DNA of 32,000 nucleotides from Candidatus Saccharimonadota bacterium (GTDB lineage: Bacteria; Patescibacteriota; Gracilibacteria; Absconditabacterales; Absconditicoccaceae): contig CP006913.1 of NCBI GenBank assembly GCA_000503875.1, positions 780,001 through 812,000 on the forward strand, given 5' to 3'. A program made the translations under genes and the position numbers. Positions within the stretch are counted from its first letter, which is position 1. Every line of letters begins with the position of its first letter. The notes beneath the pieces are model-generated. The model saw only the letters and a program-made list of their open reading frames with translations, was not told the DNA's origin and ran no database searches. Below are positions 1,488 through 11,170 of the stretch, piece by piece.

Positions 1488-2294
1488 CTAAAGATCTATA
1501 ATCAACCCATCATGAGCAAAATCAAATGGAACATCCTTATAGGTATTTTTCATTTTTTCTAGATAATCTAGTCACCAGGCATTAATTTCTATCTCTTCAA
1601 TATGAGTCAAAAGAGTCTTTTTCGGAGCATACAATTTCAATCTATCCATTAATTGCGGGAATCAGATTTCACTTTTTACTTTTTCGTGACTAAAGACTCA
1701 ACATTCAGTAATCAGTAAATCAAGATTTTGCGCTTCTTGCTGAAAACTAATGGTATCACAAGGTGTATAGAGGAATCTTTTTCTTCATTGTTCAAAAAGA
1801 TATCAATAAGTTTCAGATTTTTCTCCTGTAAATCATATTGCGGTTACCTGCGTATCACCAATAGTTACAGACTGATTGTGTTCTATATATACGATATTTG
1901 CTAGACCAAGAACATCAACAAAATAGTTGATAGAAGGATAGTGTATTTTCATGTCTTCATGAACTCTTTTCGGCATATAGAGTTGGATAACTTTTTGTTT
2001 CTTTTCCTCTACAAAATCAAAATATGATTGTAAAACATTCCTCAAGCCAAAAGTATGATCTGGATGTCGATGCGTAATAAAAAGATTATCTACATCAGAA
2101 ATATCAGATTTATTTAGAGCGTCAGCAATATCTTCACCACAATCTACCAATGCTTTGATATCATGCACGTAAAGAGAACAACTATTTCTTTTATACGGCG
2201 CACCTATCGTCCTTGCTTTTTTACAAACATCACAGACACAAAAAGGTCTTGGTGTAGGTATAGCACCTCATGATCATAGAATTTGGAGTTTCAT
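1488..2294 (-). CDS. MBL-fold metallo-hydrolase, PqqB/PhnP-like
   Basis: ATG 2294 to TAG 1488-1490. The N-terminus 'MKLQILGSGGAIPTPRPFCVCDVCKKAR' matches the Cys-rich PqqB/PhnP N-terminus. 'ITHRHPDH' is the MBL HxHxDH motif. Track fragment 1833..2168 is extended through TGA codons. Confidence 0.8.
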
Positions 2295-2358
2295 GGGATA
2301 GTGAATTATAGAGTTAAATCATTATTATTTTAATGGTCAATCGGTGATTTTCAATATT

Positions 2359-2646
2359 TTATTGAAAAAAATCATCCTTAAATTGAATCATTCAAAATTT
2401 CAAAAAATCATGAAGTTGAATGTATATATCTTTAGTTATAGATTCTTTATCTCCTATATATTTTGAAAGGAAATAGTCAACAATCTCGCCAACAGTTTTT
2501 TTACCATCGATTTGATTAAATATTTCAGATGCAATACCATTCATCTCATATAAAATTTCTTTCTCTGTATCAAAAGCCATCCCAGCATTTTCTTGGACTC
2601 TATGGGTTAATTTATTCTTTTTAATAAAGATAGAATTTCAGTTCAT
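2359..2646 (-). CDS. PqqD-family peptide chaperone (RiPP recognition element)
   Basis: ATG 2646 to TAA 2359-2361. '...AFDTEKEILYEMNGIASEIFNQIDGKKTVGEIVDYFLSKY...DIYIQLHDFLKFGMI' follows the PqqD pattern (LNxtaaxIwxxxDGxrTvxEI). It sits 16 nt downstream of the rSAM gene. Confidence 0.7.
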
Positions 2647-2662
2647 AAAATCATTTTAATAA

Positions 2663-3547
2663 TTAAAGTTTACAAGTAATACAGGTCTTAAACTGATTAT
2701 ATTTAGATTCCTCATAAATATCTTTGACGGATTTTTCAAAAACATTTCACATTTTTTGAAAGACAAAAGTACAAGGATAGACATTTCAATCAGGAGCTAT
2801 GGTTATTCGTTTTTTTCATGCAACACATTCATTTTGATTTTTAACTTTTTCTTTTTCTTCTCAATATAGGTATTCTTCTAAAAACGAGTAAATATATTTA
2901 TCATGAAACAATAGATTTATTCTATTACTATAATTTTTTTTATAAGATTGCCATAATTTCACAATAAGATCTCTATATTCAGCGTATGGTAGTAATCATG
3001 TATAACTCTTATTATCTCTTATAGTTAACATACTTATTTCATGAGCTCATTTTGATATAGCAAAATCAATAACATCCTCTAATTCATTTTTATTTAATTC
3101 AGATATTGTAGATGAAACGGCCCGTTTTAATTTCGATTTTCATAAAAGATCAAAACAAGCCATTACTTTTTGAAAACTTCATTTTACGCCTCTAAAATCA
3201 TCATAAATATTTGGATCACAACTATCTAAACTAATATATATTTTATCCAATCATACTTTTTCTAAAAAAGTAATTTTCTCTTGTGTTAACAGGATGCCAT
3301 TTGACATCATAACAACATAAAATCATTTTTCTTTCATATACGTTAATGCCTCTTGTATATATGGATATGCAAGAGGTTCCCCATGAGAAAGGACTATTTT
3401 AATAACTCACAAGTCATACAAATCATCTATTAATGATTTCACAAAATCTATACTAAAACTTTTGTTGTTTTTTACAGTTTTAGCATAACAATGTTTGCAA
3501 TTCAGATTACAGATGTATGACAATCACAAAAAAGCTTGAAACAACAT
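2663..3547 (-). CDS. radical SAM enzyme with a short SPASM/twitch-like C-terminal Cys cluster (PqqE-like peptide maturase)
   Basis: ATG 3547 to TAA 2663-2665, 294 aa, every codon checked. It has 'CNLNCKHCY' (CxxxCxxC), 'LSHGEPL', and a C-terminal 'ECVAGKKRITIAPDGNVYPC...TCITC'. Confidence 0.85.
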
Positions 3548-4824: not shown

Positions 4825-4851
4825 AAAAAAAACCAGTCTTCTCAAACTGGT
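4825..4851 (-). terminator. Rho-independent terminator after aspS
   Basis: On the minus strand: ACCAGT-8 nt loop-ACTGGT, followed by a run of 8 T. It lies 20 nt after the aspS TAA. Confidence 0.55.
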
Positions 4852-4870
4852 CTTTAAATCAAAATCTGAT

Positions 4871-6640
4871 TTATATAATTTTTATATTTGCTTGTTTCAA
4901 TGTACTATCAGATAATGCTGATGGTGACTTAAACAATAAATCTTGGGCCGACCCATTCTTTGGAAATGCAATAACTTCACGAATAGAAGACTCTTTCTGT
5001 AAGATCATCATCAATCTATCTAATCCCAATGCAATACCTCCATGTGGTGGTACCCCATAGGAGAAAGCATCCAACATATGACCTACACTATGCTGTGTTT
5101 GTTCTTTAGTATACCCCATCACTTTATAAGTTGCCTTAAGGATTTCTGGAATATGAGACCTGATAGATCCTCCTCCTATTTCGTTTCCGTTGAGAACAAT
5201 ATCGTATTGCTGTGCATGAATTTGATCTACATGTTCGCCTTTTATCAACCAATCTATATGCTCTATTTTTGGCATAGAAAAAGGGTTGTGGGTGAATTTC
5301 CATTTCCCTTCATCAGTTTTTTCAAACATAGGGAAATCAGTAATCCAACAAAATGCGAGCGTATCGTCATCATAGAGTTTCAACATTCTTCCTAGTTCTC
5401 TCCTTACTTGATCCAGTGCCTTGTTTGTTGTTTCTGGATCACTTGCAGAAAAGAATATTACATCACCTGGCTTTGCTTCTGCTTTTGCAACAATTCTTGC
5501 AGAAACATCTTCACCAAGATATTTGATAATTGGTGATTGTAGTTGATCTTCGTGAACAATAATATAGGCCAATCCTCACAATCATTTACTTATAGCAAGA
5601 TGAGTAAGATGTTCTATATCTTTTTTGGTAAGGTTTTTCTCTACTTTAATACATTTCACAATACCTCATTTTTCTATTGGAGCCTTAAAGACCTTAAAAT
5701 CAGTGTCTCTAACAATATCGGTAATATCTTTCATTTCCAAACCGAATCTAATATCAGGTTTATCAGAACCATATTTTTCCATAGCTTCAGCATAAGGAAT
5801 TCTGACTATCTTAGGTGATAATAATTTTTTTTCAGGATAATAATCTTTTACAATTTTGAGAAGCAATTCATCTATGATACTAATTACTTCTTCTGGCTTT
5901 GTAAAAGCCATTTCCATATCCAATTGAGTAAATTCTGGTTGTCTATCTCCTTTATCATCTTCATCACGAAAACATCTGGCTATCTGATAATATTTATCAA
6001 CTCCTGATACCATAAGCATTTGTTTGATTTGTTGAGGTGCTTGTGGTAACACATAAAAACTTCCTGGATGTATTCTACTTGGAACAATAAACTCTCTAGA
6101 TCACTCATCTGTACCTTTGTTGAGAATTGGAGTTTCTACTTCTATAAAATCTTCTTTATCCAAAACATCTCTCATAGTACGGATCACTCTATGCCTCATT
6201 ACAATGTTCTTTTTTACTTTCTCATTTCTCAAATCTAGAAATCTGTATTGTAATCTCTGTTGCTCATTTACTTTTTTAGATTCTTTTATTTCAAAGGGAA
6301 GTGTTCTCGATTCAGACAAAATATCAATAGACCTGGTATCTAATTCTATAGTTCCCGAAGATATCTTTTTGTTTATATCATCCTTATCTCTTTGGCAAAT
6401 AGATCAAGAAACCAATATAACAGATTCCTTTTTGTATCTCGTTATTTTCTCAATATCAGGGAAATCTTTTTTTGAAAATTTTACTTGAAAAACATGATCA
6501 TCCTCACGCAAATCAATAAAAACCAAATCTCCATGATCACGGATAGATGCAATCCATCAAGTAAGTTTTACTTCTTTTCCAATATCTTTTTCTGAAAGTT
6601 CTTTTATTTTATGTGTTCTATACGTAGAGAGAACTACCAT
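4871..6640 (-). CDS. aspS: aspS portion (class II aspartyl-tRNA synthetase), possible independent start at ATG 6640
   Basis: '[46 protein letters not shown]' looks like a normal AspRS N-terminus (OB fold). There is an in-frame ATG 21 codons after TGA 6704-6706. Confidence 0.55.
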
Positions 6641-8131
6641 TTTTTCTTTGTCTTTTTGTTCTACAGTACTATCTTTTGAAGACAAATACTCCTTATCAGT
6701 TTCTCATAGAGAAATCTTTTTGATTATCTCTTGTTTTATTTGTTCTGCAGCGGAACTTTTTCATAAAAGTTTTATAACTTCTCAAACCAAAACATTGATC
6801 TTTTTGGTATCACCTGCTTGAATTTTCCTGACGATATCTTTCTTTTCATCAAGAACTTGATCTACCATATGAGAAAAATCCTCTCCTGAAGATTGATGTT
6901 CCAAAACATATGTTTGATAATCAAAAGCTGGATCAATCAATATCTTCTTAAGAACATCTTTTAAAAGATCTTTAGCAAACTTTTTTTCTTTGTGATATAA
7001 AAGAAGTCCTGCTATTGTTTCCACATCCAATATTTTGTATTCTTCATCAGAAATATGGTTCATAAGGATTTTAGCTATACCAAGAAGATCTCAAACCTTA
7101 TCATTGATAGCAAACAAGGTATGGGCTTTTTGGATGTTTGAAGAAAAATATTTTGATTCCAAAACCGTTAATCAAACCTCCATCAATTTTTTTTCTATTT
7201 CATAGGGCAAGAACGCATATTCAACTTCAATATCTTTTTTGAGATCAGAAATATCTATAGAAGGAATATCTGGTTCTTTGATAAATCTATAATCGTTCGC
7301 GTTTTCTTTTGTTCTCATAATCTTGATAGTTTTGGTCTTCTCATCCCATAATACCGTTAACTGATCTGTTTTCGCTTCACCAGTTTTTTCCCAATGACGT
7401 ACCTGTGTTTCTATTTCTTTGTTGATAGCATCTTTTGCAAATTTAAACGAGTTTAAGTTCTTTATTTCTGTTCTTTCATTGAGTTTTTCTTCTCCTTTTT
7501 TTCTGAGTGAAATACTAATATCAGATCTCAAATGTCCTTTTTCCATATCTGCTTCAGAAATATGCAATGATCTAACCAAGTTCTGTATTGATTCCAGATA
7601 CACAATAGCATCATCAATTCTCTTAATACTAGGTTTTGTTACAATTTCTATAAGCGCTCTTCCTGATCTATTGAAATCAACCAAAGAATACCCTTCCTTA
7701 TGGACAAGCTTTCCTGCATCTTCTTCCAAATGAATATGATCCAAATCAACCGAAAATTCAGTTCCATCGTTTCTTATACAACGAACTTCTCATCACATAA
7801 CAATAGGGTGTTCCAACTGAGTCAACTGGAATCATTTTGGTAAATCTGGATATTCATAATGTTTTCTATCCCAATCAATAATATCCAAAATTTTAGATTT
7901 TATTGCAATCCCTAGTTTTACCGTTTTTGCAATAGCTTCAGCATTTGGTTGTGGCAAAACACCTACATGTCATGTACAAATAGGACAAACATATTTGTTT
8001 GGTTCTTTACTTTCTTCATTTTTACAAGAACAAAACATCTTTGATCTCGTGTTGAGTTCAACATGTGTTTCCAATCCTATAACGGGTTCTACTCATAGAT
8101 CTTCGAGCCTCTGATCTAATGTTTTCATCAT
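4871..8131 (-). CDS. continuous code-25 ORF encoding GatB (N-terminal part) fused in frame to aspartyl-tRNA synthetase (C-terminal part)
   Basis: One frame runs from ATG 8131 to TAA 4871-4873 (1086 codons) with no TAA/TAG; the junction 6641-6781 was checked triplet by triplet. GatB motifs: '[20 protein letters not shown]', 'HLEEDAGK', 'LVGEVIKLLGKSS'. AspRS motifs: 'LVFIDLRE', '[12 protein letters not shown]', '[10 protein letters not shown]', 'GGGSIR', 'GLDRLMM'. The only former-stop-like codon at the junction is TGA 6704-6706. Confidence 0.7.
6704..8131 (-). CDS. gatB: gatB portion (Asp/Glu-tRNA amidotransferase subunit B), delimited only by TGA 6704-6706
   Basis: This alternative reading assumes the TGA terminates. 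Homology to the GatB C-terminal (YqeY-like) tail ends around '...[11 protein letters not shown]', immediately before this TGA. Confidence 0.5.
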
Positions 8132-8151
8132 ATCACATATAAAGAATAAAA

Positions 8152-9564
8152 TTATTCACACAAAATATCTAGGTTGTAAGCAAATTTCAAAAGTTCATTA
8201 TCCTTGCTATAATCTCACGTAATTTGGATTCCTGTCGGAGAATGTAATGGTAATGAAATAGTCGGTAATTTCCCAAGACTAAACCCAACCGTGTACATAT
8301 CTGACATATACATAGCGAGCGGATCGTCCAAAGTAGTTCAGATTTTTGGTGGTGTCTTTGGAGTAACCGGAGAGAGAATAAAATCTACTGCTTCAAAATC
8401 TTTTTTGAAATGTTCAATTAATTTTTCTCTTGCAATTAACGCTTTTATATAATATTTATCTAGAAATCATTGAGAAAGAACCTGGTTTCCCGAAATAATT
8501 CTTCTCTTTGTCTCTTCTGAGAATCAAAAGAATCTGGTTTCTTCATAAAGGCTTTTAAGATCTTGAACATCAGCATGTCTATATCCATATTTAATTCCAT
8601 CTATACGAGACAAGTTGGAAGCGGTTTCCGCCATAGCAATAATATAATAGGTTGCAATAAGGAGTTCATCATTAAAGAAAGTTAATTCTTTGACTGTTGC
8701 TCCCTTTTCTTGGAGTTTAGAAAAGACTGTTTCAATGCTTTTTTTAATTTCTGGATCAAGAGCTTCGCTTTCTAGGAAACTCTTATAATACCCAACTTTG
8801 ACCTTAGAAAAATCAAACGTTTCTAAACTTTCCAAGGAATGTTTTTTGTAGGAGATACTGGTAAAATCTTTTTCATCCTTACCAGCCACGGCATTCATAA
8901 TAAGCTGAATATCTGAAACTGATTTTGCTATTGGTCAAACCGTATCCAAAGATGAGGCATAGGCCATACAACCATATCTAGAAACAGCTCAATAAGTAGG
9001 TTTCAATCAAATCACTTGGTTATATCCAGCGGGTTGTCTAATAGATCCTCACGTATCTTCTCCTATAGAAAAAGTGGTAATATCTGCGCTAACGTTTGCT
9101 GCGCTTCCTCAACTTGATCACCCAGCAACTAATGTTGGATCTATCGCATTTTTTGTAGGTCAAAAATGAGAGTTCTCTGTAGTACTTCCATGTCCAAATG
9201 CATCATTATTTTCTTTCGCAATTAAGATTGCTCCTTGATCCAAAAGCTTTTCAACAACCGTTGCGGTATAAGGAGCTCTATAATTTTCCAAAATCATAGA
9301 TGATCACGTAGTGATGGTATCCTTCACCAAAAAAGTATCCTTTACTCAAAAAGGGATTCCTTCAAGATCTTTAAGTTTTTTTCAAGATTTAATTTTCTGA
9401 TCAACAAGTTTTGCCTGCTGTAGTGCACTATCTTCCAAAATAAGAATACATGAGTTCAATGTATTATCTTTTGCTTTTTTGAGTTTCTCTTTAATAAAAT
9501 CTTCACAAGAATATTTTCCTGAAAGATAGTCTTCGTGGATAGAACTAATTGTAGATGTTTTCAT
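8152..9564 (-). CDS. gatA: Glu/Asp-tRNA amidotransferase subunit A
   Basis: ATG 9564 to TAA 8152-8154, no in-frame TAA/TAG (gaps checked). The amidase signature 'AGGSSGGSAANV' has two glycines written as TGA (9109-9111, 9118-9120). Also 'GIPFGVKD' and 'LPTISLP'. Confidence 0.9.
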
Positions 9565-9589: not shown

Positions 9590-9847
9590 TTATTCGATTA
9601 CTTTAGGTATCTTGAGGTAATTATCTTCTTTCTGAGGAAATGAATTAATGATTTGGGTATTTATGCTTTCTATTACCTCATCCTTTCTTAATTGAGAAAC
9701 TTTGATGGTGTGTTGGGCTTTATTAGCATGAGCAAATTTTGCAACTTCTTCATCTGACACATACTTATCCAAAACGTCAAAGAAGTTCATAATATTAGTC
9801 TGTTCTTTCGCTCATTTGATTTTAGAGAGTTTTTCCAAGCTGAACAT
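9590..9847 (-). CDS. gatC: Glu/Asp-tRNA amidotransferase subunit C
   Basis: ATG 9847 to TAA 9590-9592 (85 aa). The C-terminus '...LRKDEV...KEDNYLKIPKVIE' matches the GatC pattern. It sits 25 nt upstream of gatA. Confidence 0.8.
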
Positions 9848-9919: not shown

Positions 9920-9951
9920 AAAAAACCTCCCTAGAGATTTTTCTAGGAAGG
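9920..9951 (-). terminator. strong hairpin plus T-run in the ansA-gatC spacer
   Basis: Minus strand: CCTTCCTAGA-6 nt loop-TCTAGGGAGG (10 bp, one mismatch), followed by TTTTTT. Confidence 0.5.
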
Positions 9952-10135
9952 TTTATATGTTTGTATCATAAACTTTGTATCTAGAAAAATCCCCTTGGCG
10001 GAAGGTTATTATTGTTATTATTAACTTGAGTTAATACTATTTTCATCTAAGGATCTCGTACACAGATATAAATATCATAGCATGACAAATATAATCATAT
10101 AACTAAAAAATGCAAGTTTGTTTTGAAAAGAATAA

Positions 10136-11170
10136 TTATAACAGTTCTCAAGATACATTTGTAGCAAACATTTCTTTGGTGTTATACTTATTTTTATTTG
10201 CCAGTAACCACATAATTTTTGTATAAGCCGCCTCGCTTGTCATATTCATTCCTGAAATCACCCCTAAGTTGAGTACGGCTTGTGCTCCTTCATACTTATG
10301 TTCAGCAGGACCTGTATGACACTGTGATTTTAACACAATCACCATACCAGCAGCAATACACATTGCAATTTTATCTTGAAATTCTTTACTGGTAGGCACA
10401 TTTCCATCACCATACCCTTCCAAAACCAATCCTTCAACTTTAGATTGAACCAAATAATCGAAAATACTAAGATCCATTCATGGCACAAGTTTAAGCGGCA
10501 TCACTTTCGCATGAAGGTTTTCAAAAAGTTCTGTTTGTTGCTTTTCTACAATAGCGTTTGATTTACTTACTTGCTCCTTATTAAGGATCAGTTTTTTAGT
10601 CGCTGATCATTCAGCTTGCGTAAATCTCCCAATCAAATCATATTTAGGACTATCAAACGTATCAAAAGCACCAGTATCTTCTTTCTTTGCTTTATTTCAT
10701 TGAATCACTTTATCTCAGAAACAAATCAACACTCCCATCAATTCTGGATTTGTACTCACTTGTATAGCATTTACGAGATTATTAGGTCCATCACTATCCG
10801 CTTCACCAAGTCCTATCATAGATCCGGTCAACACTACTGGTTTTTTAAGTCCTTTAAGAAGAAATGACAACATAGACGATGTATACGCCATAGTGTCTGT
10901 TCCATGAGTAATAAGATATCCACTATACTTTGTAGGATCCTGAGCCTCCATTCTCAAAATATTATTTGCCAACAATTCTCGTTTTTCTGGAGTAAGATCA
11001 GAACTATCAATATTATATACAGATTCTATATCATCTATATTTGCATATGTTTTTAGTATTTGTTTTGTCTTTTGTATCATTGATTCACTATTGTCCTTAA
11101 CCTGTCTTACGTTATTTTCTTCTTCTTGAAACAATGTTCATCATGTAGTAAGTATTTTGACCTTTTTCAT
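10136..11170 (-). CDS. ansA: L-asparaginase, type I (cytoplasmic AnsA-like)
   Basis: ATG 11170 to TAA 10136-10138, gaps codon-walked. 'MKKVKILTTGGT' has both glycines as TGA (11138-11143). Also 'ITHGTDTMAYT', 'VVLTGSM', and a C-terminal 'NVSGELL' comparable to E. coli AnsA 'NLRGELT'. Confidence 0.85.

Follow-up and report, generated by a model that had tools for sequence, protein, structure and literature searches.

A continuous gatB-aspS reading frame with UGA as glycine behind a putative asparagine-sensing leader in an Absconditabacterales genome

Are gatB and aspS in this genome two genes separated by a stop codon, or are they one gene? In the window analyzed here (the whole stretch of 32,000 nucleotides, positions 780,001 to 812,000 of contig CP006913.1, from a member of the Absconditabacterales within the Gracilibacteria), the genes for the GatB subunit of the GatCAB amidotransferase and for a bacterial-type aspartyl-tRNA synthetase (AspRS) lie in a single reading frame on the minus strand, with a TGA codon directly after the end of GatB homology. 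The first-pass annotation offered two readings of this arrangement: a covalent GatB-AspRS protein in which UGA encodes glycine, or context-dependent termination at the junction UGA. The best explanation, to which we give a probability of roughly 85%, is that a single polypeptide with glycine at the junction is made from an operon with a putative attenuator and would form part of a permanently assembled Asn-transamidosome.

The reading frame and the meaning of UGA

Rereading the DNA bore out every coordinate of the first-pass annotation (frame 4871-8131, TGA 6706-6704, 21 codons, ATG 6640), together with its claim that no TAA or TAG lies between gatB and aspS. The reverse complement of 4871-8131 is 3,261 nucleotides (nt) long and has no in-frame TAA or TAG ahead of the terminal TAA; gatB and aspS form one continuous frame of 1,086 codons. 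Along this frame, GatB homology ends at ...IKKISL, the junction TGA comes next, and 21 hydrophilic codons then lead to the ATG at 6640. The parts of the open reading frame (ORF) are as follows.

4871..8131, minus strand: gatB::aspS fusion ORF, 1,086 sense codons plus TAA (4873-4871), with 16 in-frame TGA codons read as Gly
6707..8131, minus strand: GatB module (residues 1-475), with the GatB_N catalytic domain and a YqeY-type tail domain (Pfam)
6704..6706, minus strand: junction TGA, codon 476, read as Gly from the codon reading and the alignment
6626..6706, minus strand: hydrophilic linker, residues 476-502, outside both the GatB and the AspRS models
4874..6640, minus strand: bacterial-type AspRS module from Met498, with the OB anticodon-binding domain, the class II core and the GAD insertion (Pfam)

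This one ORF joins a complete N-terminal GatB to a complete C-terminal bacterial-type AspRS, which is the composition of the GatB/AspS fusion family. The Pfam domains are GatB_N (residues 17-296), GatB_Yqey (354-472), the OB fold (521-584), the class II core (622-1059) and GAD (815-906). With TGA translated as Gly, both halves pass their NCBIfam equivalog cutoffs, the GatB half with 412 bits against 338 over residues 14-473 and the AspRS half with 739 bits against 443 over residues 503-1085, leaving residues 474-502 outside both equivalog models. The remaining two frames of the linker are closed by TAA or TAG; a spacer of 22 codons with the same base composition would be open in one given frame by chance about 22% of the time.

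The window has a GC content of about 30%, and every long ORF in it is rich in in-frame TGA and ends in TAA or TAG. TGA is the commonest Gly codon of the window genes (343 of 712 Gly codons, or 48%) and makes up 3.5% of all their codons, and the 21 complete genes stop at TAA (16) or TAG (5) and never at TGA. In the fusion gene itself, 11 of the 16 TGA codons align with invariant or near-invariant Gly residues in 111 standard-code homologues, for example at CPICT-G-HVG and GTDE-G-SREF, and none of the 16 aligns with Trp. At the junction column, these homologues carry D (35 sequences), N (18), G (13) or a gap (11). D, N and G commonly cap helices or occupy turns, and Gly is accordingly suited to codon 476. 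Since TGA accounts for 3.5% of codons, the chance of at least one TGA in a 22-codon linker is about 55%, and the junction TGA is therefore statistically unremarkable. UGA is Gly in this gene and throughout the window. A tRNA-Gly(UCA) has been reported in UGA-reassigned Gracilibacteria and Absconditabacteria, and release factor 2 only in two Gracilibacteria species that keep UGA as a stop (PMC8629427); no tRNA gene and no prfB lie within the 32-kb window.

A possible second departure from the standard code appears in the exonuclease III gene (21322-20534, minus strand), where codons 211 (CGA) and 224 (CGG) align with invariant Trp residues of solved homologues (YTWWSYR and NVGWRLDY). These two codons suggest that CGA and CGG encode Trp in this organism, a reassignment that has been reported for Absconditabacteria (PMC8629427). 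The window genes hold 19 CGA and 2 CGG codons in total, with none in gatC, gatA or gatB::aspS. Where the window is richest in AT (22-25% GC), an ORF of 1,650 codons (17188-12239, minus strand) contains 91 in-frame TGA codons.

The junction in recoded and standard-code relatives

A protein search returned nine UGA-recoded relatives with 56-97% identity, recognized by TGA translated as W in the database. DNA was obtained for P0002, P0003, P0004, P0007, P0008 and P0009, for L092/L093 (P0005, leader region only) and for a distant recoded fusion, L097. The first-pass annotation had pointed to related genomes as a check on the frame and on the linker, and the two fared differently. In all seven recoded loci whose junction was read (L001, L002, L003, L084/85, L086, L087 and L097/98), gatB and aspS share one frame with no TAA or TAG between them; the linkers vary in both sequence and length, and the frame is kept regardless. 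The codon at the boundary also varies. In L002 (82% identity) it is TCG, the linker contains no TGA at all (...KKLSLSDSSVSSKDSSLEKDIQDKEQSEIVVLS...), and ATT takes the place of the window's ATG, so the fusion there holds whatever meaning UGA has at the joint. The boundary codon is GGA in L001 and L003, whose linkers contain a TGA at another place, and TGA in L084, L087 and L097; in L086, two or three TGA codons lie further along the linker. Met498 is unconserved, relatives having F, I, L or E in its place. P0001, which is 97% identical and comes from independent assemblies (two contigs), agrees with the window in frame and junction codon, which excludes an assembly error.

The same architecture occurs in genomes that use the standard code. 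P0010-P0120 are 111 full-length homologues of 1,103-1,120 residues, with 49-52% identity over 98-100% of the query and with all of the domains. NCBI names them [quoted passage not shown], and UniRef names one "Multifunctional fusion protein". The sources named for several of them are Polaribacter, Tenacibaculum, Marinilongibacter, Jiulongibacter, Snuella and Cyclobacteriaceae, and some of the standard-code fusions lie on complete chromosomes. Two were checked on DNA, P0066 (Polaribacter) and P0016 (Marinilongibacter); both are translated with table 11 and have the gene order gatC (85-87 residues), gatA (466-468 residues), gatB::aspS. In a search of 1.84 billion 50%-identity representatives with a profile built from database fusions, only three full-length fusion clusters were recovered: the Bacteroidota type (P0121), the recoded type (P0122) and a third, standard-code cluster (P0123). 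The halves of P0123 group with stand-alone Clostridia-like genes, and it is therefore probably an independent fusion. The first-pass annotation was not aware of any description of such a fusion. As an architecture, it had in fact been annotated by NCBI in many Bacteroidota and by UniRef; the claim stands insofar as our literature search, which had most subscription journals outside its reach, found no paper on a GatB-AspRS fusion. Judged by these similarities, the window gene is a recoded member of a fusion family already annotated in databases.

The window gene and the Bacteroidota fusions share the domain order GatB_N, YqeY, linker, OB and class II core with GAD, as well as the operon order gatC-gatA-gatB::aspS, and both of their halves fall in the same clades. 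They differ in that the window gene is written in a code where UGA is Gly, with 16 TGA codons, and in that its linker is shorter, at about 22-27 residues compared with about 35-45 hydrophilic residues. The window operon also has an Asn-codon leader and an upstream asparaginase gene, whereas no asparaginase gene was called beside gatC in the two Bacteroidota loci examined.

These comparisons bear on whether the junction UGA could have two meanings, terminating here to yield a free GatB while AspRS is started separately at ATG 6640. The position of the codon invites this idea, since the TGA falls exactly where stand-alone GatB proteins end, the TAA of an unfused gatB on the recoded contig L094 aligns with it, an ATG comes 21 codons downstream, and TGA recurs at the same boundary in the window, L084, L087 and L097, which represent several deep recoded lineages. 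However, the boundary codon is TCG or GGA in three other relatives, and one of these lacks TGA anywhere in its linker; the proposed start at Met498 is unconserved, and the junction has no Shine-Dalgarno motif, promoter or terminator. Moreover, all 21 complete window genes stop at TAA or TAG while 343 in-frame TGA codons are read through, the standard-code homologues are continuous, true fusions, and the reported occurrence of release factor 2 is limited to the two Gracilibacteria species in which UGA is still a stop (PMC8629427). Because the fusion is genuine and already annotated, a dual meaning of UGA is needless, and we regard it as highly improbable. The context-dependent termination put forward in the first-pass annotation finds no support: no window gene ends in TGA, and the linker TGA shifts or is missing in relatives. 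A sequencing or assembly artifact, or a strain-specific accident in which a lost stop or an indel merged two genes, is the default worry for any fusion on a single contig, and nothing specific speaks for it here. The frame recurs in no fewer than eight recoded loci from independent assemblies and in over 100 genomes with the standard code, complete chromosomes among them, which leaves this explanation next to no credence and refutes the strain-specific accident that had been kept as an alternative. The covalent GatB-AspRS with UGA as Gly is backed by the relatives, by the standard-code homologues and by the alignment of the TGA sites.

Both halves of the window protein are closest to the halves of other fusions. 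The AspRS half has 56-60% identity to Bacteroidota fusion halves, compared with at most 45% to the best stand-alone AspRS, and the GatB half has 43-47% identity to fusion halves, compared with about 33% to stand-alone GatB. A contig scan with P0001 (TGA as W) gave 80 loci, of which 74 had stand-alone AspRS only; these matched generic AspRS motifs and were used as outgroups. In neighbor-joining trees with midpoint rooting, a rough method, the fusion-type sequences form one clade for AspRS and one for GatB, both with 100% bootstrap support, and both halves cluster with other fusions' halves, not with stand-alone genes. The stand-alone AspRS of another Gracilibacteria metagenome-assembled genome (L029) groups elsewhere, with Peregrinibacteria. 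The Bacteroidota fusions are monophyletic (100%), with the recoded sequences sister to them or paraphyletic around them. Bacteroidota and recoded fusions group together at 79% in the AspRS tree, with the recoded stand-alone AspRS of L095 outside; in the GatB tree, Bacteroidota and most recoded sequences group at 74%, to the exclusion of L097 and P0233. Unfused genes fall in among the recoded fusions (L094 gatB pairs with L086 at 86%), and the closest stand-alone relatives of both halves are on recoded contigs. Natural split or merely adjacent arrangements of gatB and aspS are found in related and unrelated contigs (L094, L095 and L004); in L004, which uses the standard code, gatB ends in TAA and aspS lies 31 nt on in the same frame.

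Transfer between Bacteroidota and the recoded lineage could have gone in either direction. That a TGA-rich gene cannot work in a standard-code host speaks for transfer from Bacteroidota; the shape of the trees and the recoded stand-alone relatives weakly favor the opposite direction, with long-branch artifacts likely. The junction UGA might even be a fossil gatB stop, in which case reassignment of UGA to Gly would have welded gatB to aspS in the recoded lineage or its stem, and the operon would later have passed to Bacteroidota. Of five deep recoded lineages, four have TGA at the natural GatB C terminus and the fifth has it in the strain of the window, and a recoded lineage branches outside Bacteroidota and the other recoded sequences with 74-79% bootstrap support. 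Against this stand the GGA at the boundary in L001 and L003, a Gly at the corresponding position (by eye) inside the longer stand-alone GatB P0233, the loss of function that a TGA-rich gene would suffer on entering a standard-code host and, again, the likely long-branch artifacts. A fossil stop is possible but not needed, and we consider it rather improbable.

The operon and its asparagine-codon leader

The fusion gene is preceded by gatC and gatA, and these by a spacer with the marks of a regulatory leader. The features concerned are given here in the direction of the operon.

10136..11170, minus strand: type I asparaginase-family gene, a conserved upstream operon neighbor in the recoded lineage
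10088..10115, minus strand: promoter-like element TTGCAT-N16-TATATT, found by eye and conserved in relatives, absent from the consensus-scan list
9981..10046, minus strand: leader ORF encoding MKIVLTQVNNNNNNLPPRGFF and a stop, with six consecutive Asn codons (10022-10005)
9920..9954, minus strand: putative attenuator terminator hairpin and T-run, a 10-bp hairpin plus T6 at 9951-9920
9590..9847, minus strand: gatC, 85 residues, TIGR00135 gatC 29 bits, below the cutoff of 47, with position and sequence conserved in all relatives
8152..9564, minus strand: gatA, 470 residues, Pfam Amidase, TIGR00132 gatA 486 bits, above the cutoff of 481
4828..4855, minus strand: intrinsic terminator at the operon end, after the fusion gene

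The spacer between the asparaginase gene and gatC is 288 nt long and conserved, and it holds the promoter-like element, the leader ORF and the terminator. The last part of the leader ORF (GGGGAUUUUUCUAG, 9994-9981) can base-pair with the terminator's 5' arm and loop (9946-9933), which would allow an alternative antiterminator to form. Counterparts of the leader in L002, L003, L092/93, L084 and L091 have 6-7 Asn codons in which AAT and AAC interchange (six loci with the window); L091 is one short locus from a gatC-alignment scan of metagenome contigs, and its leader is a near-duplicate of that in L084. The minimum-free-energy fold of the window leader is the antiterminated form, and those of the L003 and L084 leaders are the terminated form. 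Among five distinct sequences, effectively from two lineages, the terminator plus the 1:2 hairpin has 98.6% of cells paired and 4 pairs with compensatory changes, and the antiterminator has 95.7% of cells paired and one pair changed on both sides. A similar Asn-run leader (MIKQFQNNNNVNNNPSG and a stop) with a terminator lies ahead of the stand-alone fusion-type aspS of L095. A simple search found no Asn-run ORF upstream of gatC in the Bacteroidota loci L088 and L090.

This arrangement follows the plan of the trpL, hisL, pheL and thrL attenuators: the regulatory codon is repeated within a short ORF, the terminator and antiterminator hairpins exclude one another, a T-run is present, and the whole lies upstream of an operon that supplies the corresponding aminoacyl-tRNA. 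It differs in that the codons are for Asn and that the operon is for tRNA-dependent amidation, not for a free amino acid pathway. No Rfam family matched at its gathering threshold anywhere in the window, the best matches of the leader being below threshold (His_leader, 22.6 bits against 49; Phe_leader, 22.3 against 55), and the literature search, with the same reach, found no paper on an Asn leader. With a conserved run of regulatory codons and a terminator/antiterminator pair that overlaps the end of the leader ORF, the leader looks like a ribosome-mediated transcription attenuator that senses Asn-tRNA(Asn). An Asn-codon leader in turn implies that the product of the operon is likely Asn-tRNA(Asn) and hence that the AspRS half would accept tRNA(Asn). 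As a candidate regulator, it is the best available evidence and argues that the operon makes Asn-tRNA(Asn).

GatA, GatB and GatC are all encoded, GatC being weak by hidden Markov model, and the GatA signature GGSSGGSAA is present. In a consensus scan of the coding strand, terminator-like sites were found only at 9954-9923 (in the leader) and at 4855-4828 (after the fusion gene), and neither a promoter-like nor a terminator-like site was found at the gatB/aspS junction. From this layout, leader, gatC, gatA, gatB::aspS and terminator are read as one transcription unit with the fusion as its last product. An internal start for AspRS was considered and rejected. None of the 22 window genes has a Shine-Dalgarno-like motif in the 30 nt upstream; an AAGGAG inside the linker encodes K-E and is absent from relatives, and Met498 is unconserved as well. 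An AATTT(T)AT-like motif lies about 15-25 nt ahead of the start in many window genes and could serve as a promoter element or as some other initiation signal.

The asparaginase-family gene lies upstream of the operon in L002, L003, L084 and L092 as well. In L097, a 399-residue version (2138-3337) is found 24 nt upstream of gatB::aspS with neither gatA nor gatC between them, an arrangement that raises the question of whether an asparaginase-family protein could be the ammonia-producing partner. The asparaginase-family protein of the window resembles GatD, yet it was not accepted as a true GatD: it falls below all cutoffs and is without the GatD N-terminal region.

A proposed covalent Asn-transamidosome

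Bacterial AspRS is a homodimer, and GatB binds GatA and GatC. A fusion of GatB with AspRS, together with GatA and GatC, would for these reasons be expected to give a (GatB-AspRS)2-GatA2-GatC2 particle, in effect an Asn-transamidosome that is assembled permanently. In this model, the UGA at 6706-6704 is decoded as Gly like the 15 other UGAs of the gene and opens a flexible linker, about 27 residues long, which ties together two tRNA-binding domains, the YqeY tail at the C terminus of GatB and the anticodon-binding OB fold at the N terminus of AspRS. The AspRS site would charge tRNA(Asn), as well as tRNA(Asp), with Asp. The acceptor end would then move to the tethered GatB site for phosphorylation and for amidation with ammonia made by GatA, and Asp-tRNA(Asn) would thereby be kept from the ribosome. 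When Asn-tRNA(Asn) is scarce, a ribosome translating the leader would stall at its six Asn codons, the antiterminator would form and the operon would be transcribed. From the fusion, the operon and the Asn leader, we infer that the AspRS half is non-discriminating, a predicted specificity; stoichiometry, substrate channeling and attenuator function are likewise predicted features of the model.

Non-covalent complexes of AspRS, GatCAB and tRNA(Asn) are well established. The non-covalent Asn-transamidosomes of Thermus thermophilus and Pseudomonas aeruginosa (PDB 4wj3/4wj4), built from non-discriminating AspRS, GatCAB and tRNA(Asn), have the same components as the proposed particle and presumably the same chemistry. 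The difference is that GatB and AspRS are one chain in the window, so that assembly would not depend on tRNA. A PDB search identifies the AspRS(Asp/Asn) chain of 4wj3, from P. aeruginosa, as a clear homologue of the AspRS half (460 bits). The stoichiometry and geometry proposed for the fused form follow those of the published non-covalent complexes.

Two other kinds of covalent link are known. In the AspRS-GatC fusion (NF009460 / PRK12820, [quoted passage not shown]), AspRS is likewise joined to a GatCAB subunit, but the partner is GatC and sits at the C terminus of AspRS; the window protein was tried as a member of NF009460 and rejected, with 490 bits against a cutoff of 1379. The GlnRS of Deinococcus radiodurans is a synthetase covalently joined to a C-terminal, GatB-type YqeY tRNA-binding tail; it differs from the window protein in having the tail domain only, with no amidotransferase catalytic domain, and in carrying it at the opposite end (PMC1865053).

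Several observations weigh against a permanently assembled transamidosome or limit what can be drawn from it. PDB similarity is equal to discriminating and to non-discriminating AspRS, and sequence does not separate the two. The AF2 model of an 82%-identical relative, in which the linker equivalent is coil with pLDDT below 50, has a pLDDT of 65 and a pTM of 0.43 and is too poor for domain arrangement. The covariation behind the attenuator comes from few lineages, as noted above, and no activity study of any member of the fusion family was found in the literature. Directly downstream of the fusion in L001, a relative with 82% identity, lies an AsnRS-like gene (7642-8991) of 449 residues (asnS model, 292 bits, below the cutoff of 414), so L001 may have both a direct and an indirect route to Asn-tRNA, and the pathway may serve Asn biosynthesis rather than being the sole route; no counterpart of this gene was found in the 32-kb window. 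On L094 (gatC-gatA-gatB), the TAA of the unfused gatB is followed by a terminator, and the 246 nt left on the contig contain no aspS; L095, also recoded, has a stand-alone fusion-type aspS. Because these two carry unfused genes, the fusion is not obligatory in recoded relatives. Cleavage of the linker after translation could also take place.

Taken further, this last point becomes a different account, in which one chain is made and the linker is then cleaved, or the halves act independently, so that the fusion merely equalizes synthesis and there is no channeling machine; the GatB half might then serve mainly Glu-tRNA(Gln), and AspRS would be discriminating. A variable, hydrophilic and probably disordered linker would suit this account, as would the unfused versions on related recoded contigs and the fact that AspRS specificity is unreadable from sequence. 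However, two phyla have retained the fusion with its domain order unchanged, the Asn-codon leader ties regulation to the supply of Asn-tRNA(Asn), and complexes of the same partners exist without a covalent link (PDB 4wj3). We therefore think independent halves unlikely and favor the covalent transamidosome.

If so, the fusion family would be a natural covalent transamidosome that is spread widely among marine Bacteroidota and also occurs in a recoded lineage of the candidate phyla radiation, and its single chain would be convenient for work on how mischarged Asp-tRNA(Asn) is kept off the ribosome. The shared operon shows that genes have passed between Bacteroidota and a lineage whose genetic code differs. 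The putative Asn-codon attenuator, of a kind that is apparently undescribed as far as we could find, is the most interesting new element of the locus and may give a handle on how such organisms sense their supply of Asn-tRNA(Asn).

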